From the NCBI GenBank assembly GCA_030704615.1, contig CM060732.1:55180001-55244000 (forward strand): 64,000 nt of DNA, read 5' to 3'. Below, one piece after another: positions 8,008-45,515 of this stretch. The notes beneath the pieces are model-generated. The model searched no databases and had not been told where the DNA came from. It saw only the letters and a list, made by a program, of their open reading frames with translations. A program made the translations under genes and the position numbers. This DNA comes from Takakia lepidozioides. Lineage: Eukaryota; Plantae; Bryophyta. Each line of letters starts with the position of its first letter. Position 1 is the first letter of the stretch.

Positions 8008-8350
8008 CCTAAGTGTACGGAACCTGAACGTCCTGAATCTGAAGGATTTGGTACTCTGAATGGTTTACCAATCCTCAAGGTTTACACAAGACGAACAAAT
8101 TCTATACACGGGGTAATTGTCCCCAAGCCGTCAGATGGACAATCTGTCCCTAAGTGTGCAAAGCGTGAACGTCGTGTAACTGAAGGATTTGGTACTCTAA
8201 ATGGTTTACCAATCCTCAAAGTCTACACAAGACGAGCAAAATCTATACACGGGGTAATTGTCCCCAAGCAGTCTGACGGACAATCTGCCCCTATGTGTGC
8301 GGAGCCTGTGCGTCGTGTAACTGAAAGATTTGGTACCCTGAATGGTTACC
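8008..8350 (+). repeat. 141-bp (47-aa) coding tandem repeat, about 2.4 copies, in the LINE 5' ORF
   Basis: Units start at 8008, 8149 and 8290 (PKC..ER...EGFGTLNGLPILKVYTRR..SIHGVIVPK.SDGQS). Confidence 0.95.
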
Positions 8351-8384
8351 TAGACGACAAACAATTCACACGCAAAGGGCTGGC

Positions 8385-9150: not shown

Positions 9151-9231
9151 AAAGGTGTTTTCCCACCACCAAGAGATCTGTGAAACGTTCGATTCCACAA
9201 TGAGGAGGTCAAGGCTGAGTACGTCCAGGCC

Positions 9232-22004: not shown

Positions 22005-25000
22005 AAAACAATTTAACGCTCGTAAAGAAGAAACTTTCGGCCCCCGTTGAAGTCATCGATGGACGACCATTAGCATCAGGAAATGTGGACCATGAAACTC
22101 AACCACTTGAAGTGAAGCTTAAAGATCAAGCATCACATATTGTATTCAATGTCATCCAGTCTCCAACGAATCCTGTGATCCTTGGATTGGTTCGTACTTC
22201 ACAATCCCGACATCGACTAGCGATCGCGAAAAATTTCTGCAAGACAAAAATGTAGAAATATCAAAGGTATTCAACCCCTAGTCCTTGGAGCTAGAGCTTT
22301 CATGAGAGCTACCAAAAAGGAGGCGACATTTGCTTTATGCGACTTCGATCAAGACCACAACAGACAAATGTACGTCAACATTACCAGTTCAATATCAAGA
22401 TTTCAAAGATATCTTCGAAAAGAAAAATGCAGACATATTGCCAGAACATCGACCTTATGACTGTGCAATTGAGTTACAAGAAGGAGCCCAACCACCATTC
22501 GGCCCAATCTATAACTTATCCCAGATGGAGTTGGCTGCATTACGTGAATACATTGATGAAAATTTGTCGAAGCACTTCATCCGACATTCAAAATCACCCG
22601 CGGGGGCGCCTATCTTGTTTGTGAAAAAGAAGAACGGATCATTACGCATGTGTGTCGAGTATCGCGGTCTCAACAAAGTCACAATTAAGAATCGTTATCC
22701 GTTGCCGCTGATTTCTGGGCTTCTCGACCAGCTGGGAAAAACGAAGATTTTCACCAAAATCGACTTGAGATGAGCTTATAATCTTGTACGGATAAAAGAA
22801 GGAGACGAATGGAAAACAGCTTTTCGAACAAGGTATGGACATTTTGAATACAGTGTTATGCATTTCGGTCTTACAAATGCTCCAGCAATTTTCCAACATA
22901 TGATGAATGACATCTTTCGAGAATTTTTAGATGACTTTGTAGTCATCTTTTTGGACGACATTTTGATATTTTCACAGAATGAAGAAGAACATGGCCGCCA
23001 TGTACGCCTTGTCCTTGATAAATTACGAGAAAAATGATTATAGGCCAAGTTGGAAAAATGTCTTTTCCATCAATCTGAGGTCGAACTTCTGGCTACATTA
23101 TTTTCCGACAAATGCGTCTTTATAGATCAGAAGAAAATACAAACCATCATCGAGTGGATTAAATCAACTTCGGTCCGAGATGTACAATGTTTTCTGGGCT
23201 TTGCAAATTTCTATAGAATCTTTATCAATGACTACTCCAAAATTGCTGCACCATTGACACGACTCACAGGGAAGGACAAATTTGTATGGGACGAGAAGGC
23301 TGACCAGGCATTTGAAATGTTGAAGCAGACATTTACAACGGCTCCCATACTAGTACATGCAGACTCATCTAAACCATTCTTCTTAGAAATAGATACATCG
23401 GACTTTACACTTGGCGGGGTACTCTCTCAATACGGTACAGATGGCCGACTCCACCTTGTTGGTTTTCGTTCTCGCAAATTTTCCGCTGCAGAGATCAATT
23501 ATGAAATCCATGACAAAGAACTTCTAGCGATTATTGATTTTTTTGAGGAGTGACGACATCTATTGGAGGGAGCTAAACATCAGGTCACTGTCTATACCGA
23601 TCACAAAAACCTCGAATATTTATGAGTGCTCGTGTTTTGAATCGACGTCAAACGAGATGGAGTATGTCACTAGCAAGGTTTGATTTTGTTATTACCTACC
23701 GTCCTGGACATCTTCAAGGAAAACCAGATGCTCTTTCTTGACGATCGTATCTTGCGCCAAAAAAAATGGATGCAGCTTTTGACCAACAAAAATCCATCAT
23801 CATGAAACCAGCAAATCTCCAATTGAATATGTTATCCATGTCCACTTATGACAGATCATAAATGAGATTCAGGAAGCACTGAAGAGCGACCATTTTGCTA
23901 CGACACTACGAAGTCAACTAAATCAACCTTGAGACAACCCACATGTTACAAACGACTTCGAATTCAAAGATGACTTACTTTACTTCAAGGGACTTCTCTA
24001 TGTACCTCTAGGACCTACACGACTTTGAATTCTTCAAACATGTCATGATCTTCTGGCTGCAGGACATTTCGGCTTCAACAAAACATTGGAGTTGATATCC
24101 CGGGACTATTGGTGGCCGCAGATGTGGAAACTCGTGAAAGAACTTATAAAATCTTGCGACACGTGTCCTAGAGCGAAGGGACCACGACATCGACCTTACG
24201 ACCTTCTTTAACCATTACCCATTCCTAAGGGTCCATGGTCGTCCGTGTCTATGGACTTTATTATGGACCTTCCAATTTCCAAGACCACCGATTCAATCCT
24301 TGTTATTGTAGATCATTTTACGAAGATGACACATTTCATTCCATGTAATAAGACAGTTACCGGCGAGGAAACTGCAAGACTCTTCCTCAATAATATCTAC
24401 CACATTCATGGACTCCCGAAGGACATCATATCTGATCGAGGACCACAGTTCATATCAAATTTCTGGAGGGGATTATTTCATAGATTGGATACTAAGATCA
24501 ACCTCTCTACAGCTAATCATCCACAGATTGATAGTCAAACCGAATGTGTAAACCAGATTTTGGAACAGTATCTTCGCTGTACGATAAATTATCACCAAGA
24601 TAATTGGACGGACCTTCTGTCATTGACTGAGTTTGCCTACAACAACACTATACATTCTTCGACCAAGCGAACTCCATTTTTCTCCAATTATGGTCATCAT
24701 CCTCGAGCAAACCCTTTCCACATGAAAATTGTTGGAAGCTCTGCTGCAGAAAACCTTGCTATTCATCTTGCTACGATTCACAAGGAGCTTACATCCCACC
24801 TCGCAGAAGCTCAAAAACAATACAAGAAGTATGCAGATCAACGTCGCCAACTCCAACCCCAGTTCAAGGTCGGAGATCGTGTGTGGCTTCTTCGAAGCGA
24901 CATACAAACCTCGCCACCATCAAAGAAAATGGATTATCAACGCCTGGGACCATTCAAAATTATTCGACAAATAAATCCGGTCAGTTTGCGGCTTGAACTC

Positions 25001-25309
25001 CCATGAAGTATGCGCATCCGTCCAGTCTTTCATGTTTCACTATTGGAGTTGTATCATCCATCGAATATTCTAGGGAAAGTTTCCGTACCACCTCCACCAA
25101 TCGAAGTCAATCAGGAAATTGAGTATGAAGTCGATGAAGTCCTAGACTCTCGCATAAAGTATAAATGTCTTGAATATTTCGTACATTGGAAATGCTACGA
25201 CATCAGCAAACGAACGTGGGAACCTTCATCCAACCTCGTCAATGCCTCTGACAAAGTCCAAGAGTTTCATCAACGATATCCATCTAAGCCCCGAGCTACA
25301 CGTCAATGA
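22005..25309 (+). pseudogene. pol: Chromovirus pol remainder (PR C-part, RT, RNase H, integrase, chromodomain), many stops
   Basis: ORF pieces 22330-22773, 23050-23553, 24245-25006 and 25010-25309. Confidence 0.93.
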
Positions 25310-27935
25310 GACGTCACAACGATGATGTCAGCCAAGCTAGCTTCAAGGAGAAGACTCCACATTCAATGTACCTGATACACGCTAAGAAGGAAGAGCACCA
25401 CACATCAGTATATATAGCTACACTTTCAGCACTCTTGCATCTTGTATTGGCAGCATGGAGTCACAAAAACCAGATACATTGGAGTTATCGCTTACCCAAC
25501 TACTAGATTAGCCGTTCCGACTCTCACGACCTTCAACATCACGCCGACGCTATCGAGACGATGGGCCACCAATGCGACGCGTACTTCCTCGTCTGGACCC
25601 CGTACGACTATAAGTGGAGCCTACTCGAAGTCTGATAATTCTGTTGGAGGTTGAGGCTTCGGACCCAGAGGGCAACGAAATCATGTTTGAAGGCAGCTTT
25701 GAAAATCAGAATGCTCAAATTACTGCGTGGTCCCAAGTTCAAGGTGTTGGACACTATCGATGGTTATAGGGACCTATAAATCATTTGAGTCAAGAAAGAA
25801 GAGCCGAATACTTGGCAAGTACCACCGTCTTATGAGTACAATCTCACCCTTAGTTCCTCTCAGATTGTGGAAGCAATTGAGCATTTTCATGATGTGTAGG
25901 GTTTAGGGTAGGGTTTTGTGTAAAGCAGAGGTAGAGGCAGAACCGAGCAAGGTTTAGGGTAAATCTAAGTGAGTAAGAGGCTGGGGTGTATGGCGGAGGA
26001 ATGATCTTTGGAGTGATCAACTGATGGAGAAGGGAGTGTGTGGGGCTTGACTGAGAGTGAGGGAGAGGCTGGAGAATGGCTCATGAAATGTATATGCTTA
26101 CAGTGACTGATTGGTTTATATAACCAAGCCTATTACTAACTATGATTGGCTTGTGAACTTAAGGCATGAGTGGTTGATTGTTTCATTTCGAACCTGATAT
26201 GCTTTGAGCTTGGTTCCGGAGATTTATCTCCAGACCTGCAATCAGCTTTTGTGATGAGTTTACAATCTGCATATATGGTGATAAATGTTATATATCAAAC
26301 CTTGGTTCTTTCCTAAATGTGAATGACCTGGAAACTTTGTTAGAAAGATGAATGGCTTACGGGTTGGACTATGTATGGCTTGACTGCTGGATTAAATTTC
26401 AAAGGGTTAGAACATGTGTCAGGGTTTTAATACTGAATGGATGTGGGCCGGGACATTGCTAGGGCGCCAGAGCATGACATTCCATGCATTCACGCCATTG
26501 GATGCCAAACTTTTCTTGGCACATTGGGCCAAGGTTTGTATGCGTTCACGAACTGCCGACCTTGCTCGTTGCCCGGTTGGCCTTATTTTCCACCATTGCT
26601 AACTTTGTGGGGTGGAGGGGCTTGTGTTAGGCTGCATCAAACCGCGCAAAGGAAGGAGCACCTACTTGGCAGTAGCCCATGGCCCCTCCACAGACGACGA
26701 ATACGTGGTCATGGATTCCAAGTGGGTCCAATGGAGGACCCCAAGGAGCTTGGGTAGAAGGAGGTGCCCAAACTTGGGGCCCTCCATGCAACGCCGCTGG
26801 TGGGCAGTGGGTAGGCCCCTCTTTTAATGGTGCTGCTCCTCCATTCACCCCCCCTGCTGGTGATGATCAAGATTCCACACAGCAAGGGGATGTGGCGTCG
26901 CAAGCTGCAAACAAAAAAAGTCAATGAAACTGATGCGAAAGCCCGCAAATCTGTTGGGCTGAAGCCGCACAAGGTACAACTAAACTCTAAGGGGGAAGTA
27001 GACCAGGGGTGTGAGGGGAAGGATTACTGGCAGAGCTCCTTGCGGGGACTCTGCATCAGATATCTTGATCCTAGCATTTTGCTAGCAGACAAGCAGGAAC
27101 CCAGTGACATGGCCAAGGTTAAGGAATCCATGGACGCGGATTTTGAGTACTATCCTAGACTTATGAGTGTTGACAAGTTCCAGAAAGCATGTGGGAGAAT
27201 TATAAAAGTATACCGCCAAAAGTTAAAGCTGGTGTGGTTGGTTGGAGGTCCATGCCCTCCGAGTGTAGAGTCCTGCCATTGGGATGCATTGGTGAAGTAC
27301 TGGGATTTCCCCAAGGGCAAGAAAGAGAGTGAGAACATGAAGAGAGTACGATCCAATGTTACCAACCCATCGAGGGTTGGAAGAGCAGGGTTGGCTGGAC
27401 AGGCCCGACACTTGGTAATATGAATATATGCACCACATTTTAATATATGTATACATCTATATGTATGTACATATATACACATGTATGTGATGGAGTAGGA
27501 TACCATCTCTGCCCTGTGAGGTAGTTGCAAACTGTCACTACAATCATGCCTCTGTAAACGCCCCACTTGTTTGGATGAATAGGGGCCAATTTTTTTTTTG
27601 TTGTGGCCCTGGCAGAAGAAAGAGAGAGCATGAAGTCCAAGCATCACTGAGCTGGCACACGCATCGAAGGCGGACAAGGGTTTAGGCTCCCAGTCAATTG
27701 GAGGTGCACAGGTAAATGGCGTGTGGGTATTTTTTTTTTTGTTGCATTCATTTTGCTGGAGCAGTAGCCAGGCCATGCGGGCGGATTATGTGTCTTTCTT
27801 TGGTTGTATAGAGAGGGGGCAGTGCGATGCAGTCTTGACTGTCGTCCCTTGAGGGCAGTGTGCTTGCCTTGGCAGACGTTCAGATCCCGACGATTGAGGG
27901 CGAATTGGCCACTATAAAAGCAGAAGTTGCTAAGG

Positions 27936-28457
27936 TGTCGTGCGCATACATATCGCTACACAACTACATCGCTGTCCAAACCACACCACACATATATGCA
28001 CAATAAAGTAGTCTGCCACAATGATAGAAATCCAACGAACACACTGTTGACACAAAACATGAAAACCAAACCATCACTCTTAGAAATAGTAGTCGAGCCA
28101 GGGGCACCCCAAGCTATGGGGACTCCACCCCACAACAACATGTACCCCTACATAAGCACACTCAAATCTAAACACATGCAGGAGCTCGGTCGCGCAGGCT
28201 CAACTCGAGAAAGATGAGCCGCGCGACTGCCGCTCTCGTGAAGATAAGACGGACCAGGTGTCAAACTAAACTTGACACCTGATTTAACACTTGACCTAAA
28301 TCCAAGTGTTAAATACAAATAACTAGTTTTATTCTAGCTGTTTTCACACTGTGCTTATTTAACTTGACAGCTGTCGTGCGCATACATATCGCTACACAAC
28401 TACATCGCTGTCCAAACCACAGCACACATATATGCACAATAAAGTAGTCTGCCACAA
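27936..28457 (-). repeat. 3' terminal repeat block: A (27936-28021), B (28022-28369), gc, A (28372-28457)
   Basis: The 86-bp A copies differ at one site by eye. The 348-bp B is nearly identical to 39558-39905. PPT-like agggggg on the minus strand at 28461-28467. Confidence 0.95.
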
Positions 28458-28716
28458 TCGCCCCCCTAGCTGGTGGATAGGTCCCTCTACCTCCAGATAG
28501 CTACAAGATGTAATAGCCACAGCCGTACTAAGTCCTCTATCACTGTTCCTATTGTACTCAAACTCTATAGACCAAGAGGCCGGGTACAAGAGTAGCCCCA
28601 TCGTTAGTCGCCATCTTGCAATCTGTGAACTTGAGCCAAGACCTCGTGTGTTCAAGGTCTCCTAGTAGCTGGGCCTTGCGTTGCTTGTTAGCCTCCCATG
28701 GTTGTATCCACTCCCA

Positions 28717-29613
28717 CTATCCAATGCATTGTGGACATAACCAATCCCCATCTGGAACCATCTCAAGAGGTGGAGTCAAGCACCCCATATGCCAACCTCT
28801 AGAGCATCGATCACACACCAGCATGGTGGCTGCCCCTTTAGCAGACCCACACAACATGCACCTCAAACCTGCAGATACCACTGCCAGGTTTGGGTCAATC
28901 CTGCCATCGACATTCGGAAGGTGACATGGCGCACAATTACGCACATGGTCCTTCCAAGTTATGCCATCCCGACCCTCCAAGACCAAGACGCCTGAGGGCA
29001 AGACCTCTCGAACCCTCAAAATAACACGTCCTGCAGTCACATCCAGGGTCGTAGGAGCAGTCTGCTGCAGATAGACATAGTCACCAGGGTTGAATCTCCG
29101 AACCCCAGGACGATAGCCCCCACCACGTATGGTAGCATACCTCAACGTATCACGGTGTTGTGCAATGGCAAGGTTCTCGAAAGCCATGGTCATGACTCTC
29201 TTGAACAACTCTGCACGCTGCTCACATGCACGTGCCCACACGTCCGGATCGTCAAGGTTAAGAACTGTAGCAGCTTCTCTGCGAATGGATGTAGGCAAAT
29301 CCGGCTCTCGGCCAAAGAGAAGAAAGTATGGTGAGAAAGAGGCAAGTGATGCTTGCTTGCTGAACCTGTAGCCCATGGCTAACCAGGGTAACTGAAGGTC
29401 CCAATCTCCTAGGTGTCCCTTCTGCAAGCCATACTTGCGCAAACCCCTCTTTACTGTCTGAACAACTCTCTCTGCCAAGCCATCGGCTTCAGGATGATCC
29501 CGAGAAGTGGTGCGGTGGTCTATCAAGGCCTTGTCACACAAAGCCTGAAACTCCCCCAAGAACTCTCTCCCTTGGTCCGTGAGTACCTCAGCTGGAGCAC
29601 CGAACCGGCTAAG
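28717..29613 (-). CDS. Integrase core C-part plus C-terminal PHD finger (separated from its N-part by the inversion)
   Basis: LSRFGAPAEVLTDQGREF, HPEADGLAERVVQTVK and SPYFLLFGREP. C4HC3 finger CMLC...CDRC..GWHMGC...WLCPQC. Confidence 0.95.
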   Translation of the reverse strand, partial: LSRFGAPAEVLTDQGREFLGEFQALCDKALIDHRTTSRDHPEADGLAERVVQTVKRGLRKYGLQKGHLGDWDLQLPWLAMGYRFSKQASLASFSPYFLLFGREPDLPTSIRREAATVLNLDDPDVWARACEQRAELFKRVMTMAFENLAIAQHRDTLRYATIRGGGYRPGVRRFNPGDYVYLQQTAPTTLDVTAGRVILRVREVLPSGVLVLEGRDGITWKDHVRNCAPCHLPNVDGRIDPNLAVVSAGLRCMLCGSAKGAATMLVCDRCSRGWHMGCLTPPLEMVPDGDWLCPQCIG

Positions 29614-30113
29614 ATGCTTTTCGGGATGGTGGACCTGGCCTCTTGTGGGATGCTCAGTTGCAGCAGTTAGTGGAGCCTAATGCCGACGAGCGAGAGCGGG
29701 CTATGGGGTTTTCCACTGGGACCACGGCGGTGCCTTCTCTTTCTGAGGCATCACGTCGTCAGGTGTTGGGGCAAGCAATGGATCTCAATTGCTTGACCTG
29801 GATTGTCAGCTTGGCTATGGCTGAGCAACGTAGAGTGCGGAGTGCACTTCCCTTGACGGTCTCTCTGCCTACCGAGACGGTACAGGCAGCGAGTGGGGGC
29901 GAGCCGGTGAGGACCACGAGGTGTAGACATCCATGGCACATGTGGGAGGTGCTCGAGGTTCAGAGGGAGTTGGCAGCGAAGGCAGCTGTGATGGATGAGG
30001 TTGGGGATTCTGCTCGGGATGAGGAGGTTCTCAATGATGAGACGATGGGGCAGGATGAGGCCTTGTCATTGACTGAGCAGGAAGGGGGTACTTCTCAAGA
30101 GGTTGCAGCATAG
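29614..30113 (+). CDS. C-terminal part of the C5 DNA methyltransferase (motifs IX-X) plus linker, in the inverted segment
   Basis: AFRDGGPGLLWD, ERERAMGF (motif IX) and RRQVLGQAMD (motif X). Same frame as the RT ORF, separated by one TAG at 30111-30113. Confidence 0.88.
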
Positions 30114-30272
30114 CAACCACGGGACGCGTCCTCTACCTCTAAGCCCACTGGACTTAAGGTTGCAGTTACGGAGGACAATTGGGAGCCTGACATTGGACCC
30201 ATTGTCACCGGAGGAGAGAGACGACGTATACGGCGGTTCCTGAGGGCTTATAGGAATTGCTGTGCCTTCAGT

Positions 30273-32312
30273 TTGAAGGACTTGGGAGCACTGAAGGGTC
30301 AAGAGATCCGTATTGAGTTGGCCACTGACACGCCAATCTTTCGGAGACCCTATAGATACAGTGACATGGAGAGGTCTTTGATTCAGATGAGGACTCAAGA
30401 TCTCTGGGAGGCAGGTTTGGTGGAGCTCTCTGGTGGAGAGTATGCTTCAGCCACAGTGATGCCAGCTAAGAAGGATGTCTATGGCAATTGGACGGAGAGA
30501 CGTATGTGCGGTGATTACCGGCCTGTAAATCGTCAGACCAAGTCCGATAGGTATGCCATGCCAACACCAGAGGAGATCTTTGATGCCATTGGGCATTCCA
30601 AGGTCTTTAGCACGTTGGATTTACGATCCGGATATCACCAGTTGCCGATCAAGGAGGCGGATAAGCAAAAAACGGCATTCTGGGGGATCAACGAGCACGG
30701 GAAGGATTGCCTATACCAGTGGCGGTTCTTACCATTTGGGCTTAAAAACGCTCCCGCTGAGTTTCAAAGAGTCATGGACAGGATTCTAGCAGGGGTGGAG
30801 TTTGCTCGGTGCTACATAGATGACATCATCATCTTTAGTGCTACGGTGGAGGAGCATGAGAGACACCTTCAGGGGGTATTTGAGCGCTTGAGGACGCACG
30901 GATTGAAGTTACATCCGGGCAAGTGCAAGTTTTTCCACAACCAGATTGAGTATCTGGGTCACATGATATATCCTGGAGGATTGGGGGTACAGCAGACTAA
31001 GGTAGAGTCCATTGCACATGTTCCACGCCCCACGGATGTGAGCCGAGTTCGAGCTTTCATGGGGTTAGCAAACTATTACAGACGGTTTGTTAAGGGATTT
31101 AGTGCCATTGCAAAGGCTCTAACCAGGCTGACCAAGGTGGACCAGGAGTGGCAGTGGGAAGATGAGCAAGAACAAGCTTTTCAAGAGCTCAAGGCGAGGT
31201 TGACCTCGGCGCCCATCTTGAGACGACCTATCAGGGGGCGTCCTTTTCAGCTGCATACAGATTGGAGCATGCTGGGGCTTGGAGCGGTGCTCACACAGGT
31301 GGATGATGAGGGAAGAGAGTTCGTAGTGGCTTATGCTAGCCGCTCGAACAATGCTGCAGAGTCTAAGTATAGCTCATATGAGGGAGAATGCTTAGCTGCA
31401 GTGTGGGCCGTTGCACACTTCAGGTGCTATCTATACGGCAATCTCTTCACCCTTGTCACGGATCACCAACCACTCAAGTGGTTGATGGAGTCAAACAAGC
31501 TTACGGGGAAGTTTGCACGGTGGGCACTCATCCTTCAAGAGTATGACTTTCAGGTGGTGCATCGACCGGGTTTGGTCAATCGAAATGCAGATGGGTTGAG
31601 TCGCAATCCATGCACGAGCCAGCAGGATGACACTGGAGCTCGGTGGCATGGTGAGACAGACGAGGAGATGGTGCCCGGATGGCATGCATCTGCATTTCTG
31701 TGTATCTTGGCAGCGGAAGGCCAGGTTGGACCTACAACAGGGATGACTGTAGATCAAGTGTCTGAGGACCCTGAGGCCAGCAATGAGCAGGGTGGCGCCA
31801 AAGATATACATGAGGATTCAGTTGTGTTGGACTACCTCCGCAGTGGAGACACGGCAGCCACTATGACTGCCAAGGAGAGGGATCGGATCCTACAACGAGC
31901 CAAGAGGTTCAGGTGGGAGGGGACACACCTGCTCCGAGTGTGGGAGGATGGTCGAGTGAGGATTGTGCCTCACCCAACACAGCGGGCACGGTTAGTGCGG
32001 CATGCCCATGAGGAGTTGGGGCATTTTGGGGTGCGACGCACTCATAGTCTACTGCAGGGGCAGTATTGGTGGCGTGGTATGCACACAGAGATGCAACAAT
32101 TTGTGGCTAGGTGCATGGTGTGTGACAGGGTGCGTGCTTCATTCAACGCCCCTACGCCACAATTGCACCCTCTTCCGATCATGGGATTGGGCTACAGGTG
32201 GAGTCTTGACTTCGCAGGGCCGTTGCCACTGACCATGCGCCACAACAAGTACGTGTTGGTGATGGTGGAGCACTTCTCCAAATGGATTGAATTGGTTCCA
32301 TTGCCTAATAAG
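30273..32312 (+). CDS. pol: Gypsy RT, RNase H and integrase N-part (inverted segment)
   Basis: RMCGDYRPVN, STLDLRSGYHQ, PFGLKNAP, YIDDI, HTDWS, YEGECLA, TDHQPL, H..LGH...C..C and WSLDFAGPLP motifs. Confidence 0.97.
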
Positions 32313-33800
32313 GCTGATCCTGGGAAGCTGAGCAGTGTAGGTAATGCTGCTCGTGGTTGACCCACCCTGTTGACCACTGCCAAAGGCGAACGGTCATCGT
32401 GTCTCACACGTTGAGACTGCCTTCCTGTGTCCAAAATGTCATCCACGGTGAGGTGTGCTGGCCGCTGCACCCCATCAAATGCACGCTTGAGCAGTGCGGG
32501 TGGCATCAAGTTAGTCCACCATAGTCGTGGACGATGAGCCCGTGACCCCACTGCAGCTGCATCCAGCAACACTGCGGACCCAAGCCACGACCGGACTTGA
32601 TGCACACTGGCCATCACCCTGGCCCGAGAATCACCCATCAGTGGGACATTCTCCAAGATGTATGCTGGAGATACAGCTTGATGAAGCTGCAAGCAGCGTA
32701 AAATCCGCACCATCTCCCAAAACAGACCCGTCCTCGAGTCTCGCAATCCATTGCCATGCCCGGCTGATGAATGCCCTTGGCAGGGCCAACCTGCCACTAT
32801 TAGATCAATGGAGCCAACCTGCTCCAAATCTTGCGCCCCCAACAAGGAAATGTCTGCTGGCAAGGCTTGTTGGTATCCACGAACTGCAGACACAGGCAAC
32901 AAGTCAGGGTACTGTTGTACCAACTGAGCCACATGGCGCAGTGAGACACGTCGTGCAGTCTCATCCCTCTCCACATACAGGTAACGCCTTACCCGCACAC
33001 CTGCCTGTAGCACAGCAGCCAATCCGGTGCTGATCCCGCCAAACAAGTCCAGAAGGCAAATGCCTTCATCCGGCCGCTGCCACACAAGAGGTGTGGTGTC
33101 CAATGGCGACAACTGAGGTGGCCCTGGTGCAATCACCGCACTCTCCTCCTCCCCTGACGGTACAAAAGCTTCTTCCCAAGCTTGTTGCACCCGTCCATCA
33201 GCAGCTTGCTGCAAATCCTTGCTCGTACCCCACAACGGAGTGTGAGCAATCATGGCAGGCAACTCCGCCGTACCATGCATGTCATCCAGCTCTGCTGGAG
33301 GTGGCACATCCTCTGCATGGGCATTGCCTTCCAGCAACTCTCCAGGCCAACTAACGGCAGCTGTGAAGGCGGCTAGTGTTGGCATCTTGCCCCGCTGGGC
33401 AGCTGCAATACCCCCAATGAATGTCACAGGGAGCTGTGCACGGCGACCATCCCCCGACTGCCATCCAGGCCTGTAGGATGCTGACTCCTCCCAGAAATCC
33501 AGGGTGAAGCCCATGGGGTATAACACTGCCCCACCAACGAGGACATCGTAAGAGACCGCGTCTGTCACAATGGCCTTGGCTCGCATCACTGAGCCATCTA
33601 CAGGATGATCCGGCTGCAGTCTAATAGCCAACTGATGTCGTGTCATGCCGCGAGCCTGCTCTGATCCTCCCAGAGATGTCTGTATCTGGAAAGGACAAGG
33701 CTCCATATCCGCCTCCATGAGGCCCAAACCTGCAATAGCAGCACTGCCTAACATCAGTGGCTGAGCTCCTGAGTCCAACAAGACCCGGCCGGTACTTCTT
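32313..33800 (-). CDS. Aspartic protease followed by DNMT3-like C5 cytosine methyltransferase motifs I-VIII
   Basis: VLLDSGA...YDVLVG (retropepsin). LDLFGGISTG (I), YVERD (II), DI (III), DLIVAGWPCQGHS (IV, catalytic PC), YILENV (VI) and RAHRPRLWWTNL (VIII). Confidence 0.93.
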
Positions 33801-36009
33801 GCCTGCCGGTCCACTCAAAGTGAAAATGCCTCCCTGGTTGTCTAACAAGACAACTCCAGGTGTCACCATGGCGCGCTCAATGGTTGGCCTAGCTGGCAGC
33901 TCCGTCAACCTGGCAGCTGCAACTTGCCATGGCGCAGCTGTGGCAGTCTTGACCCTCAAATCCGAGGATCCCTCTGCCACTACACCTTCCACTAACTCCG
34001 CAGAAGATGAAGTGACCTCCCCACTCTCACAGAGTGTTGCTGCTAGTCTGAACACTGCAGCTGGTCTCACCCCCGGCGTCGCAATCATTGTTGCCGAGAA
34101 CAGTGGGGCCTGACACACAGAGGTGGCTGCCCCCAATAACACACCGGCCGCACTAGCCTTGGCAGCAGGAGTCAATGCTGCACGTGTGGCTCTCCCCAAT
34201 GGCATAGTAACCTCCGCCTCGGTAACAGTCGGGCGAGAACTAGGTGCCATGGATGGCGTCGACACAGTCTCCGCCAATGTGAATGACTGAGGAAGCCTTG
34301 CCTGACGGCTTGCCTCCCCACGCTGTGGATCCAATTCCACCTCTGCACCTCGTGGCTCAGGAACTCGTGCTGCTCCTCGAGTCACGGCTGCAGCAGACTC
34401 CACCTGCTCTAGTGGTAGTGCTGCTCCGCACATAAATCCCATGCCTCCCATATCTCCTCCCTCAGGAGCAGGAGGTGGACCATCCCGTCTGGGAGCCGGT
34501 ACCGCCTGAGCTATAGCCATGGCAGCGAGCCTCTGCTCTAGCTGCTGAAGCCGGTTGGCCATGCCTTGATCAACGCCCTGACCTCCGCGTCCTTGGCCAT
34601 GTTGAGCTTGCCCTTGGCCTGCACCTCGTGCCTGACCACCTCGTCCTCTCTGGGCTGGTCCACCTCGCCCCCGGCCACCATTGTTCCCTTGGAACTGGCC
34701 TGGGCGCAACTCAGGATGCAAGTCATAACACTGGGCATCTCCATGCCCATACTTGCCACAATGCCCACACTGCAACTGTGCAGGCTGTGCTTGTGCCGGC
34801 CTTCTGCCACTCTCTGGGCAATCTCTCTTGACATGGGGTCCTCCACATGTCCAACATATCACCCCTGGTTGCTGTTGGCCTGCAAAAGATGCCACGGGCC
34901 TCTGCACCTGAGGTCCCCTGTAAGCTCCATGGAACTTGGCTGGGCAACCTTGCCCCCCTGACCACGCTGTTGGGCAGTCCCTTGTGCTTGTGGGCTGACA
35001 GCTGTGCCCCGTACAGGCATGTCCTTGCCAAATCCAATTGTAACAACTCGCTCCTCTACCATGTTGAGCTCAATCCGCTCAGCCAACAAAAACACATCTG
35101 CTAATGTGGGTTGGGCTGCTTGTAACAGGGTTGCATCTCGCACCCTTCTCTTGAGCTCCTTGTCCAGAATTCCATACCAAAACTGGATTGCCTGAGCTTC
35201 AGTAACCCTTGGGTCACACTTATCAAGCGCCTCATACGAGTGTACGCCTCTCGCAGGCTCTCACTGGGTTTGCGCTGGAAGTCTTGCAAACTTCGCAGCT
35301 TCTCTGTCCGTACACCTTGGTAGTTCCTCCGCAACTCCTGGAAGAACTCCACCACCGGGTTGAATCTAGGCACATGTGTTGTAGTTGTGGCAGGAGGAGT
35401 AGTAGCACCTTTTGAACTGGTACCACCTGCAGAAGTACCAGCACTACCTGCTCCACTACTAGTGCTGGCAGTGGGAGCTATTGGTACTGATGCAGCTATT
35501 GGTCGCGTCGTGCCTCGAGTAATGGAGACGTAGTCAGGTGACCAATACATCCTCCACTCCTCAATCTCTGCTTCATGTCCTCGCCTGAACTCGTGGTAAT
35601 CGTCCATAGGCGGGCCTTCCAAATGCTGGAACAGTCCCTTCCACGCCATGAATGGGGTGAATAGCTGTGGATTGCGCATCTGCTGCAAATCACACCAGCT
35701 GTTGAACTCCTGGATAAAGTCATCCAACTCGATTGTGCCCACAGCTCCAGAGTACCTACGAGGCCCCTTGGTAGCTCCATACATCTCCTCCATGTCGTCC
35801 CACAACAATGGCGAATGAAAGTGCACACCTGTTGATGAAGCCTCCGAGTCTGTGTCTGACTCTACAGTAATTGAGGGTGGCGGTGAAGGTGGTCTGAACC
35901 GAATACCTCGTCTTGTGAACCCACTCTCACTGTTACTGCCTGTAGCCGTACTCCCCTCACCACCCTTGGGTAACTCCGTAATGACACTCACAATGTGCAC
36001 CTCCTCCAC
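33780..36009 (-). pseudogene. gag: Gag with two CCHC zinc knuckles, 2-3 frameshifts
   Basis: YSG...LDDFIQEF, FQRKPSESLREAYTRM, FWYGIL, CWTCGGPHVKRDC and CGHCGKYGHGDAQC, followed by an RGG-rich tract. Confidence 0.9.
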
Positions 36010-36530
36010 GTGACACTATAAGGCTCTAGTACTAATCTAATAGTGACACGGGTGGGCACCTGTTGCAGTTTTAAGGGTCATATCCCAATGGCTCAGGGCA
36101 CCTGCACCTGCATCCACCGCAAGAACTCATATGGTTGGCTGGTCATCAACCCAGCCTCACCATAGAAGAAACACTGGTGGTCTTGCTGGTCATCACTCCA
36201 GCCTCACCACCGACAGCATACTCTAGGATTGACCGGTGATCAAATCCGGCCTAATCCCTATGAAAGCAAGCGCCCACACAAAACCAACATGGCGCACAGT
36301 CAAGCATGCAGGTGTTGGGGGGGGATCCAAACACAAGAAATCAAAACATCAACACCCCCACACCAAAATCCAGCTGCAATGCTGATCCTGTAGAATATCC
36401 CAGCCCAAAACCCCGGACTGGCTGGCCTCCACCAAGAGAGGCTTTGGCAACTGCAAGTACAAGGTAATGAAAATAGTACAGAGATGGAGGGGAAGAATAG
36501 AAGCCCGACCAAGCAAGATCCAATCCTGAT

Positions 36531-37280
36531 CTATGCTATCAACTGCCAGACTTCTCTCAAAGTGCCTCGCTCTGCATGATGGTAAGGTGTAGGAGGTATA
36601 TCTATGTCCAGAAACCTGCCACTAACCTTGTCCCAAGCTACAGTAGCTCGCTCTAACCAACCCTCCTCCTCTTTCTGCCAGGTAGAGACAAAGCAATACT
36701 CCCCTATCTCCCGCTCACTGAACACTAAAGAAAACAAAGGTAGGGTCTGATAGTCTCTCAACTCGAAAGCTTTGAGACGGTTGCGGGTGTCCTCATTGCG
36801 AATGACTGCATCTCCTTCACGCACAACAAACATGTCATTGCTGATGAACCCCCGCTCGTGGTTGCCCTGTGTAGAGCGTATCCGGCTGCAACCATGTCTG
36901 ATTGCACAAACTTGTGTAGCTCCTGCTCCTCTGCTCCAGTACACCACGGCCTTGTGGCTGAACACCTTGGTCCCCGGGGCTGTCTTTGGCTGTGTTCCAA
37001 GCCTAGCTTTCACCCACTTTGGTATTTCACCTACAGCTGCAGAACTGCTGGCTCCAACAGAGTTCTGACTGTCCAAGGCGATATTGAGGCCCTCAATGCC
37101 AACTACAGCAGTCTGTTGTCTACTGCTAATGCCTGACTCCCAGTATGCAATCAACTCGTCCAACTGTTCTCCACTCAAATCAGTCTGAGTTCCTTGGGAA
37201 ACATAAATCCTGTCCCCTTGTGTGCACAGGCTAAGAGAAGAGACCTGCCCTTCAATTACGTCCTCATTTCCCCCAGCCAT
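36531..37280 (-). CDS. Orphan 249-aa ORF upstream of gag in the retrotransposon
   Basis: Intact ATG-to-stop ORF, co-oriented with gag, no recognised motif. Confidence 0.55.
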   Translation of the reverse strand: MAGGNEDVIEGQVSSLSLCTQGDRIYVSQGTQTDLSGEQLDELIAYWESGISSRQQTAVVGIEGLNIALDSQNSVGASSSAAVGEIPKWVKARLGTQPKTAPGTKVFSHKAVVYWSRGAGATQVCAIRHGCSRIRSTQGNHERGFISNDMFVVREGDAVIRNEDTRNRLKAFELRDYQTLPLFSLVFSEREIGEYCFVSTWQKEEEGWLERATVAWDKVSGRFLDIDIPPTPYHHAERGTLREVWQLIA

Positions 37281-37695
37281 GCAAGGAGTACATCCACAGA
37301 TTTGTCTCTCATATAGACCAGCACAGGTTCTAGAGACAGGATTGTGGATCTTTTATGGCACACTCACACTCTAAAAATTCCATAGATTTTTAACAGAGTC
37401 CCAAAAACTAAAACCAGGTCAAGATAGGTAGATTTCCCCTTTCTGCAGCTATCCCCCCAAAAACTGAGTCAAACAGAGTCCATTTGACAAAGATGTGACC
37501 AATTTGGCTCTAAATCATTTAAATTAGATCAAAAGACCAAACAAATACAAAGAAAACTTTTTTTTTTTAAAAAAAAAAAATATTTGTCTTGGTTCCCTGT
37601 TCCCTGGTTATCTTCGGGTTCCCAAACATGTTCATGTAGTTCTCACAGTCTGGATTCACCCCTCCTCTCGTTCTGTGCTCTTATGCTGTGGCAGT

Positions 37696-37820
37696 GCGTG
37701 GGATGTGAAGGTCGGTGATGCGGGTCTTGGCCTTTCTGTCAAGGAGAACGTGAGAAGGCTTCAGATCAGTACACCCTGTGCTCCGGGCACTCAGGATGCA
37801 GGTACGCCAATGCCCGTTGC
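37696..37820 (-). pseudogene. Receptor-like kinase fragment (subdomains VIa-VII)
   Basis: ALAYLHPECPEHRVY/DLKPSHVLLD..KTRITD, with a frameshift. Confidence 0.75.
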
Positions 37821-38124
37821 AGGAAAGCATGAGAGTGGGAGACTGTGAACTCACCAGGTGACACTTGATGTATGAGCGGGATATGAGCTGAAGGGATTGA
37901 CTCAACGTTGCCATCGGTGTGTACGGGCATTGACGCCCACAATTTCCAGGGCTTGCACTGAAGCATTTCTAAGCTGTTCTTAGGCCACTAACACACCCTG
38001 TGTAGCTGCAGAAATTGTTCCCACGGGACCCTATAGATTCACCTGTAAGGCTGCTCAACGCCTGAGCTTAGAGTATGGTTGGATCACTTGCTCATTAAAG
38101 GCCCACAGAATATCTACAAAAGGA

Positions 38125-38693
38125 CCCCAGCCTGACCACCACCTGCTTGTGCCAGCTTGTTCAAAGATTTGCCCAGGTACTTTCCTTGTCTCTCAGCAAC
38201 ACTCTTTGTTTGCGGTAGGGCTTCCATTAGTAACTGGATCAACTGCCAAGCTTCCACCAGGGCACTTCTTCACAGGTAAGGAGTGGACAAAGGAAGAAGA
38301 TCCAACACCCATTGATCAAACCAGCAGCCCGTATGGCACCTCCGTCCCATCCGTAAGCACTAATTTGTCTGGCAGAACATCCTTGACTACATCTTGCATC
38401 AGCTTTACCCCAGTCTGAAAACAGTTATGCGTTTAAGACCCTCCAGCTTATCCCTCCAAACCCTTGATCAGGTGCCTGGTCGCGTACTCCCGGAGTCGAA
38501 CATCGAAAGATGAAAAAAAAAAATCTCCTTTGCCTCAATAAGTGTGACATGGATAAAATCTTTCACATGGCCGAACTAGCCGTAGACGTCTCTCCTGATG
38601 AGTCACTGAGCTCACCACTGAGTTCCACCCCTGTAGGACCACCACCTACAACAACACAGTGTAGCAGTCTTGCCTTCTCATCTGCTGATATCC
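38125..38693 (-). pseudogene. NDA: Type II internal NADH dehydrogenase (NDA-type) gene fragments
   Basis: [31 protein letters not shown]...HVTLIEAKEI.SSFDVRLREYA, an intron-like spacer, then [28 protein letters not shown] and VAERQGKYL...AGGGQAG. Stops and frameshifts. Confidence 0.9.
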
Positions 38694-39544
38694 CTGCAAT
38701 CCATTTTGAAAAAAAAAAAAAACTGTCCAGGTACTGCATGCTGGATTGCCTTGTCGGTTGTTGGCTAGTCCCACCACTGCTGTATTTAGCCTTCTATCAC
38801 ATGAATCAAGTCGTCCACAGTGGTGTCTTCCCTAAACAGCACTTGCCACTACTGTCCTTGTCAATGGTGATTCAGTTAGAGTCACCCCTGAATCACGATA
38901 ACTTGCAGCCCCAAGTGACAACGTTCAGATGTGGACCCACTTTTGAGACCCACCAAATGTCATTTATGCCCAGTCCTCTGCCAAGTCACAGATACACACA
39001 ACTAGTTGGATCAGAGCCTTCTTCCGAGCAAAGCATTCTTTTCCGCGCTGCAGTGTCATCTGCTGCCAAAAATTTGGAAGACAAGCTTCCACCCACTGTT
39101 CCACATCATCATCATCGTTCGTTGTGACTTCAAGCTTCTGATTCTGCAAAGCCTGGACAGTCAAGCGGTTGTTCCTTTGAAAGAGGATCAGTGGTATGCA
39201 ATGAAGCCTTCAGACATGACACACAAGACCAGAAGAGCTCCTCTATAAGCTTACTGGTGAAACGATCATCCAGCTTCAAGGATCATGCATAGGTGCCAAC
39301 TAGCATTTGCTGCTGCATTTTTAAGTATCTCCTTGTGTGCCCCAAAGCCTCTAGTGACTTGGTAGCTTCAGCAACTGCAATAACAATGGCGGCTCTGGCA
39401 TCGTCATCCTCCAGGCGTTTCAGGGCACGCTGAATCTTGTGGTCACATTCAATGATATGCTTCTCAAACTAATCACTACTTATACGCAGGTAATCTTGCA
39501 AGTGCTAACCCTCAACTCCTACCTTGCACTCACAGGTAAGAGAG

Positions 39545-39557
39545 CATCTTTCTCGAG
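39545..39557 (-). promoter_or_regulatory. Self-priming primer binding site
   Basis: catctttctcgag is the exact reverse complement of 39740-39752 inside repeat B and abuts the repeat end. No TGG tRNA-type PBS is present. Confidence 0.8.
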
Positions 39558-39905
39558 TGATAGAAATCCAACGAACACACTGTTGACACAAAACATGAAA
39601 ACCAAACCATCACTCTTAGAAATAGTAGTCGAGCCAGGGGCACCCCAAGCTATGGGGACTCCACCCCACAACAACCTGTACCCCTACATAAGCACACTCA
39701 AATCTAAACACATGCAGGAGCTCGGTCGCGCAGGCTCAACTCGAGAAAGATGAGCCGCGCGACTGCCGCTCTCGTGAAGATAAGACGGACCAGGTGTCAA
39801 ACTAAACTTGACACCTGATTTAACAGTTGACCTAAATCCAAGTGTTAAATACAAATAACTAGTTTTATTCTAGCTGTTTTCACACTGTGCTTATTTAACT
39901 TGACA
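39558..39905 (-). repeat. 5' terminal repeat B (348 bp)
   Basis: Matches 28022-28369 with two mismatches seen by eye. TG...CA ends. Confidence 0.95.
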
Positions 39906-42900
39906 AAGGCTTCTGCGGACAATAGCAAAAAACTGGATGCATTGATGGCAATGATATTGGGAATGTCAGCAACCGCCCCTCCTCCAACTACTATCCCAAT
40001 ATGTACTGTTATTGAACCTTGCGATTCCGACACAGGCTTGGGAGGCAAGACTGCTACGGAGAAGGTGGTTTGTGCACCTTTACCCCAACTTATTTTTGTG
40101 GTTGTTATCCATTCAGTGTTAGTTGACTTTGAAGTTTACTGCTCTGGTATGTTTTGCTTGGGTGCAAGGAGAACCTCTTGAGGTTGGGGAAAAGCCAAAG
40201 TCGTCTGCCATTGAGGACTTTGTGGTGACCCAAGTAAAATTGGGGCGCAAGGGAATTCCTGATAAATTGCCACGTAAGAAGGGAGGTGGAGCTGGCGGGA
40301 CAACAATATTGGCTGCTGGTGAGGACGTCTGCTCCACCGAGAGTGCTGGTAAGGGTGACAGTAGGGGGTTGGCAGATCAGCATGTGAAGCCAACTTCCCC
40401 ACAGAAAGAGGTACGCCCTCAAAGACTTTGTCTTGGTTCTTGTCCTTGGGCTTTCTGTTTTTTACTCTGAAAACATTTCATGAATGATCTATTTATTGGT
40501 GTGTGCCATGAATTCTATGCATCAGGTATGGTAAGACGTACTCATGTACTATACCTTGTTGTTTTGTTGGCATGTAGAAGGGGACTAAATCAGATGACCC
40601 TACCCCAGCCATCGTGAAGGGAGCTGAGAAGAAGTACATACAAAAGGGAGAGCGTGTAACCAGAGCCACTACTGCCAAAGGCACAAAGTCCTTGACTGAT
40701 GCAAATGGTGACATAACACCAAGTTCTAGCGGGAGTAAGAGTCAGGTGGGCCTTCAGGAGGCACCTCTCCATGCAGCAGTTTCCGTACTAGAGGTGAGCA
40801 TGCATGCACCTGTTGGCTATCAGTTCTGTACAATGTGGCCATTTACATGTTGGGTACTTCAAACTATTAGTAGATGCATTGCTAAATGAAACTGCTAAGG
40901 GGTGTTGGGCGTGATGTTTGCAGGCTGAGAAAGTCGCTCTTGATACTGCCACTGATAGTGCACCAACTGCGGCGCCTTCAAAGGCAACCCCCAAATATCA
41001 ACCCCCTGCCACAGTGGCAGATATTCTTATGCTACCAAAAATACTCTACACTTTCAGTGATTGCTTATATTGGGCGGTCCTCATTATCTAGTTTTCAATG
41101 TACATGTATGTCTTCATGGGTTGATTAATGTGGATTTTATGGTGGGTGCTGTGTGCAGTTTAAGTTGAAGGACAAAATCAGCCTATATGATCCTCATTTA
41201 CCACGACACAGGGCTGCCAATGGAATTGTCACTGGTGTGCCTGGCAAAGATACATATCACTGCCATGTTATACCTGAGGGATTGTGGCGGGTTGAGGTGA
41301 ATGATATCTATATTGCCAATTGTGTCTTGCCTCACCCTAACGAGGAAGAGGTCCCACCGCAAACAATGTTGGAGGATGTCGTTGGTCTGAATTGTCTTTG
41401 GCCAGAGAAGAACATGAAGAGGGCTTAGATTTCGTTCGCCCGGGCATAGACATTGCTGGCAGTGAGAAGAAGGCATGAAAGCAGTTCAGTGTTCCTAGCA
41501 TGCATGCGGAGACGCCGTGTACAAGTTAGGCTTAGTGCGTTTATCATGGCTGGATTTTGTTGACAGTGTTCCAGCACTTAACTCTCTGGGATTCTATTCT
41601 ATTTTGTGGAGCTTGAATCCCCAATGGTACTTCTTTAAACACTACACTAGTGGTATGTGTTCCTCTAGTCATGTTCATAATCACTTGCACATCACTGTAA
41701 TAATGGTATAATTTAAAATTGTGGGAGTAGCCAAATGCACACAATTGCCTACATTACCACTTGTATAGTGGTATAAGTAGTCACATATATATTACTGTAC
41801 TAGTGGTATGAATTCCTCCAGTGGTATTCCTAATCACTTACACACCACTCTGTTGGTAATGACTCCAATCCATAGTTCCCACTCAGAGAGACACCATGAA
41901 TGACTCAAATAGCTTATATACCACTCTGTGGGTAATCATTCCAATGACCTGCGGAGAGACGACAACCACTCACATAACCACTCTATGAGTGATATTGTAT
42001 ATTCTCAGTTTTCATAGAATGACTCTATGAGTCATTTTGTGGTCACTCAACAAGTGGTTTTGGAAGTCATTGAATTTTTCACTCCATCCATTTCGTAGCA
42101 CTGACACACGACACGTGTCCATGCTGAGAGTGTCGCCACGTGTCGACATAATCTCCAATATCATCCACGGACCACCGACTTACAAGTCTCCACTACAAAA
42201 CGGAAGTGGGTACTTTACCACTATGACACGTCAGTTTACCACTGTGACACGTCATAAGTGGTTGCTTTACCTCAGTGACACGTCATTGACATGTCACAGT
42301 GGTTAATTTACCACTGTGACACGTCAGCTAACAGGTGGACCCGGACGTGAGTGGTTCGAACCACTGTCCTTAACCATCGGTGCCACGTAATGTTTTTTAT
42401 CACTCACTTGTCCTAATGCACTGGTTCTTCATCACTCTGGGGCCAGAGTGGTTTAGTGTCTTTTACCACTCAAAATGAGTGGTTAACAGAGTGGTTATTC
42501 CGCGTTTTTCTTCTAGTGGGAATACCAGTGATGAGCTCTTCCCAAGTGGATCCCGGGTAGGGGCTGGTGGAACTCGAGGCCTCAAATTAGCAAGCAAGAT
42601 CGATGTACCCCCTTTAACCAGTTCCCACAATCGTAGAGGGCTCGACTTGTCAGGAGGCAGGAAGCTCTCAAGCTCTACACCCAATTCTGAGGGTGTGTCC
42701 AGCGGGAGCTCAGGCCATGGGATGGTTTCTTTCTCCGGTCAATCAACAAACATCAGCTGCTCAGGTAATAGGTTGCATGCAAGCTCACAAATGTAGCTCC
42801 GTTCATCCAAGTCGAAGAAGAAGGTGAGAAGGAATCCCAGCTCCACAAGTCCCTTTGCGCAAATAAATTTATTAAAAAAAAAAAAAAAAAAAAAAAAACA

Positions 42901-43876: not shown

Positions 43877-44600
43877 AATGAAATGAAACGAAATGAAATG
43901 GTGCTTTATAACGTCCGCGGAAAGCTCATAGAGCTTATGGGACAAAATGGAAAGAAAAAACATGAGAGAGGAAACAGAAAACCGGAGCCAGAAATAAGAA
44001 CACTATTGTTCGAGTGATTGTCTAAGGGTGAGTGCCTCGTGCAGGAAAGCTGCCAAGCATTTCCGATCTTCATAGTGAAAGACTTCAATGAGAGATTGGG
44101 TTCCACGGTGGAATCTCCCACGGATCTCATAGTGTAGAGGGCAATAGAAGAAGTGTTCTTCAGTTTCGATTTCCTGGTTGCGCCCTGTGCAAGCTGGACA
44201 TAGGCGGTCCTCCCGTTGCAGGTTTTCCCATCTGCCAGTCTCTATCCGTAGGTTGTGGGAGCCCACCCTGAACCGCCCCAATGCCCTCAGGAGAGAAGGA
44301 GATAAAGGTGCCGAAAGGTAGTTGGGCCGCAAGATTCTATCATCTCGGAGAACCAAGAATGTTTCTCGATAGAAATGGAGCTTTGTCGTGAGGTTGGGTA
44401 ACTTCCAAGTTATCCTGACATGTAGTTCCATAAGTTCCCGTCTAATGAGTCTGTTGCGGTCATGCTTGGATGTGATGTCCACCCATTCTGGATTCACTGG
44501 CAATAGTGAAGTAATAGAGAGTCCATGACGTTCAAAAAAGGTATCCACGCGAGCATACCAGGATTGTTTGAAACCTGCATTTTTGAGCGTAATAGATGTT
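43877..44600 (-). mobile_element. 5'-truncated LINE (second family) with a (CATTT)n tail
   Basis: ORF 44003-44548 has RFRVGSHNLRIETGRW...RLCPAC...ETEEHFFYC. The aaatg repeats at 43876-43900 abut a (GA)n tract. Confidence 0.88.
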
Positions 44601-45515
44601 GAGAGAGGGGTGTGGGGGGTTTAACCTATTGGACAACCTACACAAAGCATTTGTCAGGAAGTCTCCACTTGAAAATGTATCGTTTTTACCCTCGTCTGTC
44701 AGACTTCACAGGTCTGACAATGCAAGAGACGACAGACACCCCAACTCGGTTCTTTCTCTGAAGCAATCAGGAGCTGCTAATGATCTGTATTTGAGTAGTG
44801 TTTGCGTGCAGGCCAATTGGTGAACATAGAATGGATTGGGCATGAGTTCATGTCATATCCTTCACAGTGGTGGGACGACATGCTAAAGTGTTGTATATTG
44901 GCTCATGTATTCAATTCTGGTTACTGCAAGGACGATCTTTGTCTATCTCACCTGCAAGAGTGTTGGCTCAGTCAGGAGTTAATCCACCATAGTGTTGAAG
45001 TTGGTTTCTTTAAAGTTATGACTTGGTGTTTGAAGCCATGCTTGTGAACATTTGGTGGTTGTAGCCTGGTCTACTCGAAGCTGCGGCACAAGTTATGAAT
45101 GCTCAGCTCCTCACTCTGATTTCTCGGAAAAGAACAAGATCACCAGACTTGAGAAGTAAGAGCACCAAGGAGGTCATTTGGATTCAGAATTGGTTGAACC
45201 CTGCTTGGTTGAAAGCAGGACTGGCTTCCATGTCACATGGTCCAGTAGAATCTGATGATGGACGCAATGTGGAGGGACATCATGGAGCTCCACGCCGAAA
45301 ATACAACAGGTATTATTTTGATGACGATACAGGTGTTCCGCCCCAAACAGAAAGAATCACTACACTGTATTCTCAAGGTAGATGACTGCAATGGTTTCTT
45401 AATCCTGTTACTTGTGTAGCAAGAAGGATGCCCTCATGAAGAGATATAGGGGCTTGAGATGCGTGATATGATTGAGTGTAAGGGATTGTAACTCCGGAGT
45501 TTTGACACATGCAGG

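Follow-up and report, generated by a model that had tools for sequence, protein, structure and literature searches.

A predicted DNMT3-type methyltransferase upstream of a conserved stop codon in a Ty3/Gypsy retrotransposon of the moss Takakia lepidozioides

A stretch of 64,000 nucleotides from the moss Takakia lepidozioides (assembly GCA_030704615.1, contig CM060732.1, positions 55,180,001 to 55,244,000 of the forward strand; hereafter, the window) holds a Ty3/Gypsy retrotransposon of 11,970 bp, at 27936-39905 on the minus strand, that encodes a predicted cytosine methyltransferase (DNMT). The window copy is dead, because it carries a 2.7-kb inversion and three frameshifts in gag-protease. 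We favor, with moderate confidence, a reading in which it is one of many copies of a moss element whose Gag-protease frame ends in a DNMT3-type enzyme that probably methylates the element's own cDNA in the particle, and whose reverse transcriptase (RT), RNase H, integrase and PHD finger are probably made by reading through a TAG stop codon. An earlier sequence-only reading had described a DNMT3-like enzyme built into Pol; the placement has to be revised, as the conserved TAG puts the DNMT on the Gag-protease frame and leaves RT, RNase H, integrase and PHD beyond the stop. New relative to that reading are the three frameshifts, the PHD finger, the permutation of the terminal repeats and the conservation of the TAG context.

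Why would a transposon keep an enzyme that silences it? The question dates from 2018, and its only examples have been algal ones, in hosts not easily engineered; the 35 longer homologues found here include, among the named ones, 18 from Marchantia polymorpha (with one from Calypogeia fissa and two from Sphagnum), which makes the question testable in a model plant.

The methyltransferase domain and the stop that follows it

Motifs I-VIII follow the protease in frame, in a minus-strand open reading frame (ORF) at 32192-33814, with the catalytic Cys (codon 32780-32782), ENV and AHRPR intact, and motifs IX-X are in frame with RT across a single TAG at 30111-30113; both are as the sequence-only reading had them, and the profile check against PF00145 that it proposed gave a match above the curated cut-off (Table 1). 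The domain has the DNMT3 motif set, namely FxG (motif I), the catalytic Cys (IV), ENV (VI) and RxR (VIII), in canonical order. By sequence, the solved structures closest to it are those of DNMT3A (E 8e-10) and DNMT3B (3e-7), followed by DRM-type enzymes (3e-5 to 2e-3) and HhaI (6e-4); the naturally intact domain of locus L003, when modeled (pLDDT 85), finds its best fold matches in DNMT3A/B/C, at a TM score of ~0.7. Identity with plant DRM was rejected: DRM motifs are circularly permuted, whereas motif I comes first in the window, as that reading had also noted. On motif order and best-match ranks, we assign the domain as a DNMT3-type, unpermuted cytosine methyltransferase between protease and RT. 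It resembles the catalytic domain of mammalian DNMT3A/3B in motif order, best sequence match and best fold match, but is only ~21% identical in structural alignments, comes without PWWP or ADD, and carries extra segments behind motif II and within the target-recognition region.

The domain is a feature of the family. A one-off capture is ruled out by the 35 homologues, by sibling copies within this organism whose contigs, from runs X1, X4 and X6, show the domain unbroken, by 80 loci that a metagenome scan yielded from 461 confirmed stretches, and by concordant trees. The scan does weigh somewhat against this breadth, in that its loci were found via methyltransferase motifs and copies lacking the domain could not appear. 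Loci with the whole domain number four by an overly strict pattern and seven by tblastn. Wherever parts are present in the 80 loci, their order is gag-protease-DNMT-RT-RNase H-integrase-PHD, and the gag-protease-RT-RNase H-integrase series with a DDE integrase, which defines Ty3/Gypsy, is read from unbroken relatives and the two pieces in the window. A DNMT tree (45 rows) and an RT tree (29 rows), both quick and unrooted, recover the same groups: the window with bryophyte rows, L039/L062 next, and a second architecture apart; the outgroup of the RT tree is a 130-aa piece of the window's own chromovirus, on a long branch. That the host is a land plant is borne out by a TPR gene at 61546-62781, which groups with Ceratodon and one further row as a deep branch (100/99, 29 rows; a single gene, informative at the clade level) and so suggests a moss that probably diverged early.

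A profile search, whose profile includes some flanking columns, recovered 578 clusters at E 1e-30 or better. Among the best 150, the DNMT lies after RT/RNase H in 64, before integrase in 18, after protease in 14 and before RT in seven, and stands alone in 47; named members come from Klebsormidium nitens, Closterium and, for the RT-RNase H-DNMT-integrase-PHD order, Scenedesmus. The large sister clade with the DNMT between RNase H and integrase (P0218, P0226, P0251 from Scenedesmus, P0029, P0030) keeps the PHD finger, and its order was not found in the available text of PMC5890265.

The domain evolves non-neutrally, in line with the sequence-only reading. Motifs I-VIII, compared with the 65 of 80 loci that hold most of them, have a median proportion of synonymous differences (pS) of 0.75, which is saturated, and of nonsynonymous differences (pN) of 0.24; pN is 0.15 in motifs IX-X, and RT gives a pS of 0.75 and a pN of 0.17 (42 loci). 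In unsaturated intact pairs, the ratio of nonsynonymous to synonymous rates (dN/dS) is 0.11 (L039-L040) and 0.13 (L039-L062). Among the 40 of 71 within-organism variants listed, motifs IX-X have eight silent and three replacing changes and the DNMT-RT linker has eight and 16; the linker offered no alignable segment for dN/dS. Two observations pull the other way: 13 of the 65 loci lack the catalytic motif by pattern (52 keep it), and a close, decayed moss pair, L004-L012, is neutral (dN/dS 1.2). Judged by these comparisons, the methyltransferase is under purifying selection with its catalytic motifs kept in relatives from Marchantia, Calypogeia and Sphagnum, and such genes may have to be included in tallies of DNMT3 in bryophytes.

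The stop codon is likewise a family trait. Fifty-five loci span DNMT to RT, 45 in the near clade and 10 in the far clade. TAG or TAA followed by CAR-YY stands in frame, 18-25 codons before the first conserved RT motif, in 41 of the 45 near-clade loci, against a CAR-YY background of six in 728 codon starts, which rules out the TAG as a lesion; three others have another stop and one has none, so that a stop is conserved in 44 of 45. The contexts after the stop (CAACCA, CAACCC, CAACTC, CAGTTA, CAATCA) come from five lineages at saturated or high silent distance: the window, L003, the moss family, L039/L040 and L062. Intact L039, in which gag too is unbroken, reads as 1369 codons, TAG CAG TTA, and 1047 codons. 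None of the listed within-organism variants falls between 30094 and 30190, and annotated proteins from Marchantia, Calypogeia and other sources end 78-116 residues past motif X.

UAG CAR YYA is the readthrough signal of tobacco mosaic virus (TMV), according to the available text of PMC2754532. The window and L003 have TAG CAA CCA, L039/L040 have TAG CAG TTA and L062 has TAG CAA TCA; unlike the TMV-type signal, the element's stop sits after Gag-protease-DNMT and before RT, and the moss-family hexamer ends in C. It is thus quite likely, on this context, that RT-integrase-PHD is a minor product of reading through the TAG. An alternative, which we consider unlikely, is that RT-integrase comes from another mRNA, either spliced or initiated separately, and that the TAG is a true stop: the moss family does have an in-frame ATG two codons past the stop, and residue 14 of L062 is a Met, but in L003, L039 and the window the stretch from the stop to the RT start is free of Met, the two frames keep register, and the CAR-YY context is kept while adjoining codons vary. 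Even this alternative would leave the DNMT on the Gag frame. Because the TAG is conserved across the clade in a readthrough-type context, we assign the DNMT to the Gag-protease frame, upstream of the stop, readthrough or not; the stop would then raise the dose to be expected in a particle from a few molecules of DNMT to the Gag level.

Several findings count against readthrough. Most of the 41 stop loci belong to a single, redundant moss family with C in place of the consensus A at the end of the context; the full CARYYA occurs in only four of the 45 near-clade loci, and 13 have TAA; no conserved RNA structure was found 3' of the stop in seven sequences (z -0.6 to -1.6). The far clade is mostly without the stop: seven of 10 loci are open, three have TAG in another context, and P0027, P0186 and P0215 are single frames; therefore, a Gag-level dose of DNMT is not required across the whole superfamily. 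Two far-clade elements (L072, 772-4843 and 7431-11552) lie in tandem and are 82% identical.

Permuted ends and the integration route

The element has TG...CA termini and a target duplication of 4 bp, within the 4-6 bp usual for Ty3/Gypsy, and runs X1, X4 and X6 hold the empty site as a joint 27931>39906, whose four letters fit either side. The near-identity of the repeats (two differences in 348 bp, one in 86) together with this empty site supports a recent insertion; here the sequence-only reading was right about the repeats and the age, but the ends are not those of ordinary long terminal repeats (LTRs). Instead of two whole LTRs around an internal region, the LTR is permuted, as A-internal-B-A-B, a layout shared by the window, L055, L068 and L075. 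The end of A2 directly abuts B2, which we read as an LTR-LTR junction and which recurs in L031, L034, L055, L068, L075 and L080, and B is absent in front of all 25 5' A copies (20 sites). At the B1/A2 border, the palindrome with its 2-bp spacer is found in the window and nine loci, including members at ~33% protein identity, and is damaged in L058/L059. Because B-GC-A lies between the G-rich tract and the 5' primer site, it behaves, by its sequence, as one LTR.

How is reverse transcription primed? The complement of the primer site within the 5' repeat is 14, 17 and 15 nt long, with different letters, in three lineages, and pairs with a probability near 1 in folds; a self-complementary primer site of at least 10 nt follows the 5' repeat at a distance constant per clade in 17 of 25 5' A rows. 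Priming by tRNA is not favored, as the site is without the initial TGG (no tRNA scan was run). The arrangement resembles that of the Tf1/sushi/Tcn1 chromoviruses, in which a primer site just after the repeat is complementary to a stretch within it (available text of PMC7175516, PMC6317226); in contrast to these, the moss element has a PHD finger rather than a chromodomain (no Chromo match), a permuted LTR and a DNMT.

A route that would yield A-internal-B-A-B exactly is a two-LTR circle cut at the palindrome in its 5' LTR. Retroviral integrases can cleave palindromic two-LTR junctions, as the available passages of PMC1905944 and PMC1180852 report, and we lean slightly toward this route for the moss element. 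A perfect 4-bp duplication, which flanks six of eight elements with both ends, is a point in favor. Some ends speak against it: L009, L013, L023, L027 and L041 end in B alone, whereas the circle model predicts no such loci unless they are collapsed or recombined; and L075 is without a duplication and that of L017 matches at three of four positions. Because L013 and L034 have a flank in common but one ends in B alone and the other in A/B, collapse or B-B recombination is likely at the B-alone loci; one-LTR circles are another possible source. If circle opening is the normal route, this would be an LTR element with the two-LTR circle as an obligate precursor. Permuted ends may also explain misses by searches that demand two flanking LTRs and a target duplication (as in REXdb).

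Known relatives and the role of the enzyme

Retrotransposons of this kind have been published: KnitGypsy-Dnmt3 of Klebsormidium nitens has Ty3/Gypsy domains, an intronless, unpermuted Dnmt3-type domain under purifying selection, and DIRS-like A-coding-B-A-B repeats, according to the available text of de Mendoza et al. (2018; PMC5890265). On these likenesses in sequence and layout, the moss element is its land-plant relative. They differ in host and in that the moss DNMT is split from RT by the conserved stop, whereas the K. nitens DNMT, by its authors' account, shares an ORF with RT; the PHD finger, self-priming site, target duplication and palindrome go unmentioned for K. nitens in that text. 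K. nitens GAQ93235.1 (P0297; zinc knuckle, protease, DNMT), not confirmed as the published copy, is 36% identical over motifs I-VIII and is weakly placed in the unrooted quick tree, where the window domain groups with bryophyte rows. SymbioDIRS-Dnmt3 of Symbiodinium also combines a Dnmt3-type domain with split repeats, but has a tyrosine recombinase in place of a DDE integrase, the DNMT in Pol and an unrelated RT (same source); a DIRS/PAT tyrosine-recombinase element is ruled out here by the rve integrase and the 4-bp target duplication. The 96-genome table of PMC5890265, as available, includes Physcomitrella and Selaginella, with Marchantia and Sphagnum absent. Neither members from land plants nor the readthrough stop nor the palindrome route were found described in the literature searched, outside which lay subscription journals and the supplementary figures of PMC5890265 and PMC12344493; land-plant DNMT-bearing Gypsy elements go unnamed in the available passages of PMC12344493, PMC5784723, PMC11244446 and PMC6317226.

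The proposed life cycle has five steps: (i) transcription would begin inside repeat A, near 39752; (ii) most ribosomes would end at the TAG to give Gag-protease-DNMT while a few read through, a step we hold with good confidence and one by which the DNMT would be packaged at the Gag level; (iii) the RNA 5' end very probably primes its own reverse transcription in the Tf1 fashion; (iv) the cDNA ends would be joined into a two-LTR circle that integrase opens at the palindrome in the 5' LTR, a step marginally better than even; and (v) with about an even chance, by analogy, the DNMT would methylate cytosines, probably in CG, on the naked cDNA before insertion, so that the copy arrives marked. Methylation of cDNA is favored because the domain is of the de novo type and would be abundant in the particle, and because the Symbiodinium Dnmt3 domain methylates CG de novo in yeast (available text of PMC5890265). 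The same text reports that yeast expressing the K. nitens domain showed no methylation, a result that tells against step (v) and that its authors call inconclusive; human DNMT3B likewise failed in that assay. The ratio of observed to expected CpG (CpG o/e) lends that step no support either: it is 0.50 in the element against 0.48 in the window, equal values that give no sign of extra self-methylation; CpG depletion was uninformative. That a green-lineage-wide superfamily, missed so far in mosses and Marchantia, brings an active de novo DNMT to the capsid level via a leaky stop, methylates its own cDNA and opens a two-LTR circle at the palindrome as its normal route is a tentative extension that we rather doubt.

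What else could the enzyme do? It might have a narrower job in replication, marking or binding the conserved CG in CACGACA by the cut site so that only one palindrome of the circle opens. CACGACA is conserved at the border in lineages that are 33% identical, all 25 5' ends show the same permutation, and DNMT and split repeats co-occur here and in KnitGypsy-Dnmt3; but opening of the other palindrome would leave a copy without the 3' R region, selection or decay could produce the bias, and the CG is lost by transition at three of the borders shown (L055, L080 and the L027 end), which makes this job improbable next to cDNA methylation. It is similarly hard to credit that the DNMT works on host chromatin, during insertion or later, with the PHD finger directing it to methylate the target site or host DNA instead of the cDNA. 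A PHD finger does end the integrase and is kept in the chlorophyte-type architecture too. Its residues presumably resemble those of proteins that bind unmethylated H3K4, which is also what the ADD domain of DNMT3A recognizes. The stop, however, leaves the bulk of the DNMT on a product that has neither integrase nor PHD, and the protease would be expected to separate them. Finally, the domain could be folded and conserved but catalytically silent, a DNA- or RNA-binding module of the particle, as the yeast result for K. nitens might suggest; since lineages that split long ago still have the motifs with the catalytic Cys, Glu and Arg, and human DNMT3B was negative too, this is very improbable, and methylation of the element's own cDNA is the reading we retain.

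Layout of the window copy and its surroundings

Table 1. Features of the retrotransposon in the window
Feature	Position	Strand	Evidence or remark
Target-site duplication, left, 4 bp	27932..27935	+	same 4 bases at 39906-39909
Repeat B2, element 3' end	27936..28021	-	ends ...CACGACA; 1 difference in 86 from B1
Repeat A2, 348 bp, TG...CA	28022..28369	-	2 differences in 348 from A1
Internal palindrome GACA-GC-TGTC, B1/A2 border	28366..28375		intact copy of both joined element ends; predicted integrase cut site
Repeat B1, 86 bp	28372..28457	-
Polypurine-tract-like G run directly before B1	28458..28468	-	same G run before B in loci holding the 3' end
Integrase core, second half, and C-terminal PHD finger	28717..29613	-	rve E 1e-3, PHD E 3.7e-11
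Inverted segment	29614..32315	+	peculiar to the window copy among copies compared; others join 29614 to 32316
Methyltransferase motifs IX-X	29614..29810	+	86% identical over 65 aa to P0004 (Marchantia) and P0003 (Calypogeia)
Conserved stop TAG, then CAA CCA (CAR YYA)	30111..30119	+	predicted readthrough signal
RT, RNase H, integrase zinc finger, integrase core first half	30114..32315	+	RVT_1 1.9e-32, RT_RNaseH 1.2e-35, Integrase_H2C2 8e-16
Methyltransferase motifs I-VIII	32316..33064	-	PF00145 E 3.5e-13
Aspartic protease, DSG motif	33460..33790	-	aligns with homologues matching Asp_protease_2
Gag region, two zinc knuckles	33790..36015	-	Retrotrans_gag E 0.004
Extra ORF upstream of gag, 249 aa from first Met	36531..37352	-	2 homologues, 37-38% identity, conserved blocks
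Low-copy stretch in the 5' region	37748..39455		not common to most copies
Primer-binding site, 14 nt	39545..39558	-	complementary to 39739-39752 inside A1; predicted Tf1-like self-priming
Repeat A1, element 5' end	39558..39905	-	starts TGTC; predicted transcript start near 39752
Target-site duplication, right	39906..39909	+

The inversion that the sequence-only reading placed at 29614-32312 is there, with its right edge moved to ~32315 by the joints of other copies (14, 6 and 3 contigs of runs X1, X4 and X6); all loci with both pieces show them in one orientation. Its breaks cost two methyltransferase bases and 36 bases of the integrase core, the latter retained in other copies. An assembly origin may account for it, because no contig among those listed bridges the window's own joints. 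The frameshifts, seen as indels relative to other copies, lie near 35205, 34937 and 33786, and the protease region of the window has no Pfam match. The element is covered by contigs several hundred times more deeply than its flanks (a summed depth, not a copy number).

Neither a Pfam match nor, among the 80 metagenome loci, a tblastn match was found for the extra ORF upstream of gag; its Atlas matches, all <0.9 and of low recognition, and a single-sequence model with pLDDT 35 are uninformative. In the low-copy stretch farther upstream, the summed contig depth is ~1,000-7,400 against 0.1-1.2 million elsewhere in the element (run X1); the stretch occurs almost unaltered in runs in which the empty site is present too, has strand-switch joints at 37809-37921, and is possibly captured host DNA.

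The rest of the window is rich in other elements. A weak match to an En/Spm-type transposase (PF03004, E 1e-4; 26815-27423, plus strand) lies ~500 bp from the insertion, which suggests that a different transposon was the likely landing site of the element. Chromodomain Ty3/Gypsy pieces lie at 15625-16350 and 22200-25309 on the plus strand (Chromo E 1e-12, gag E 1e-14), and the part at 22.2-25.3 kb has a CpG o/e of 0.95 against 0.48 for the window. A long interspersed nuclear element (LINE) at 8325-11942 on the plus strand has endonuclease-like and RT frames, and partial copies of LINE 3' ends lie at 56013-57278 and 44003-44620 on the minus strand. An intronless PPR gene at 45492-48155 on the plus strand has a period of 303 bp (PLS-type), and a decayed, inverted paralogue of it lies at 18043-19547 on the minus strand.

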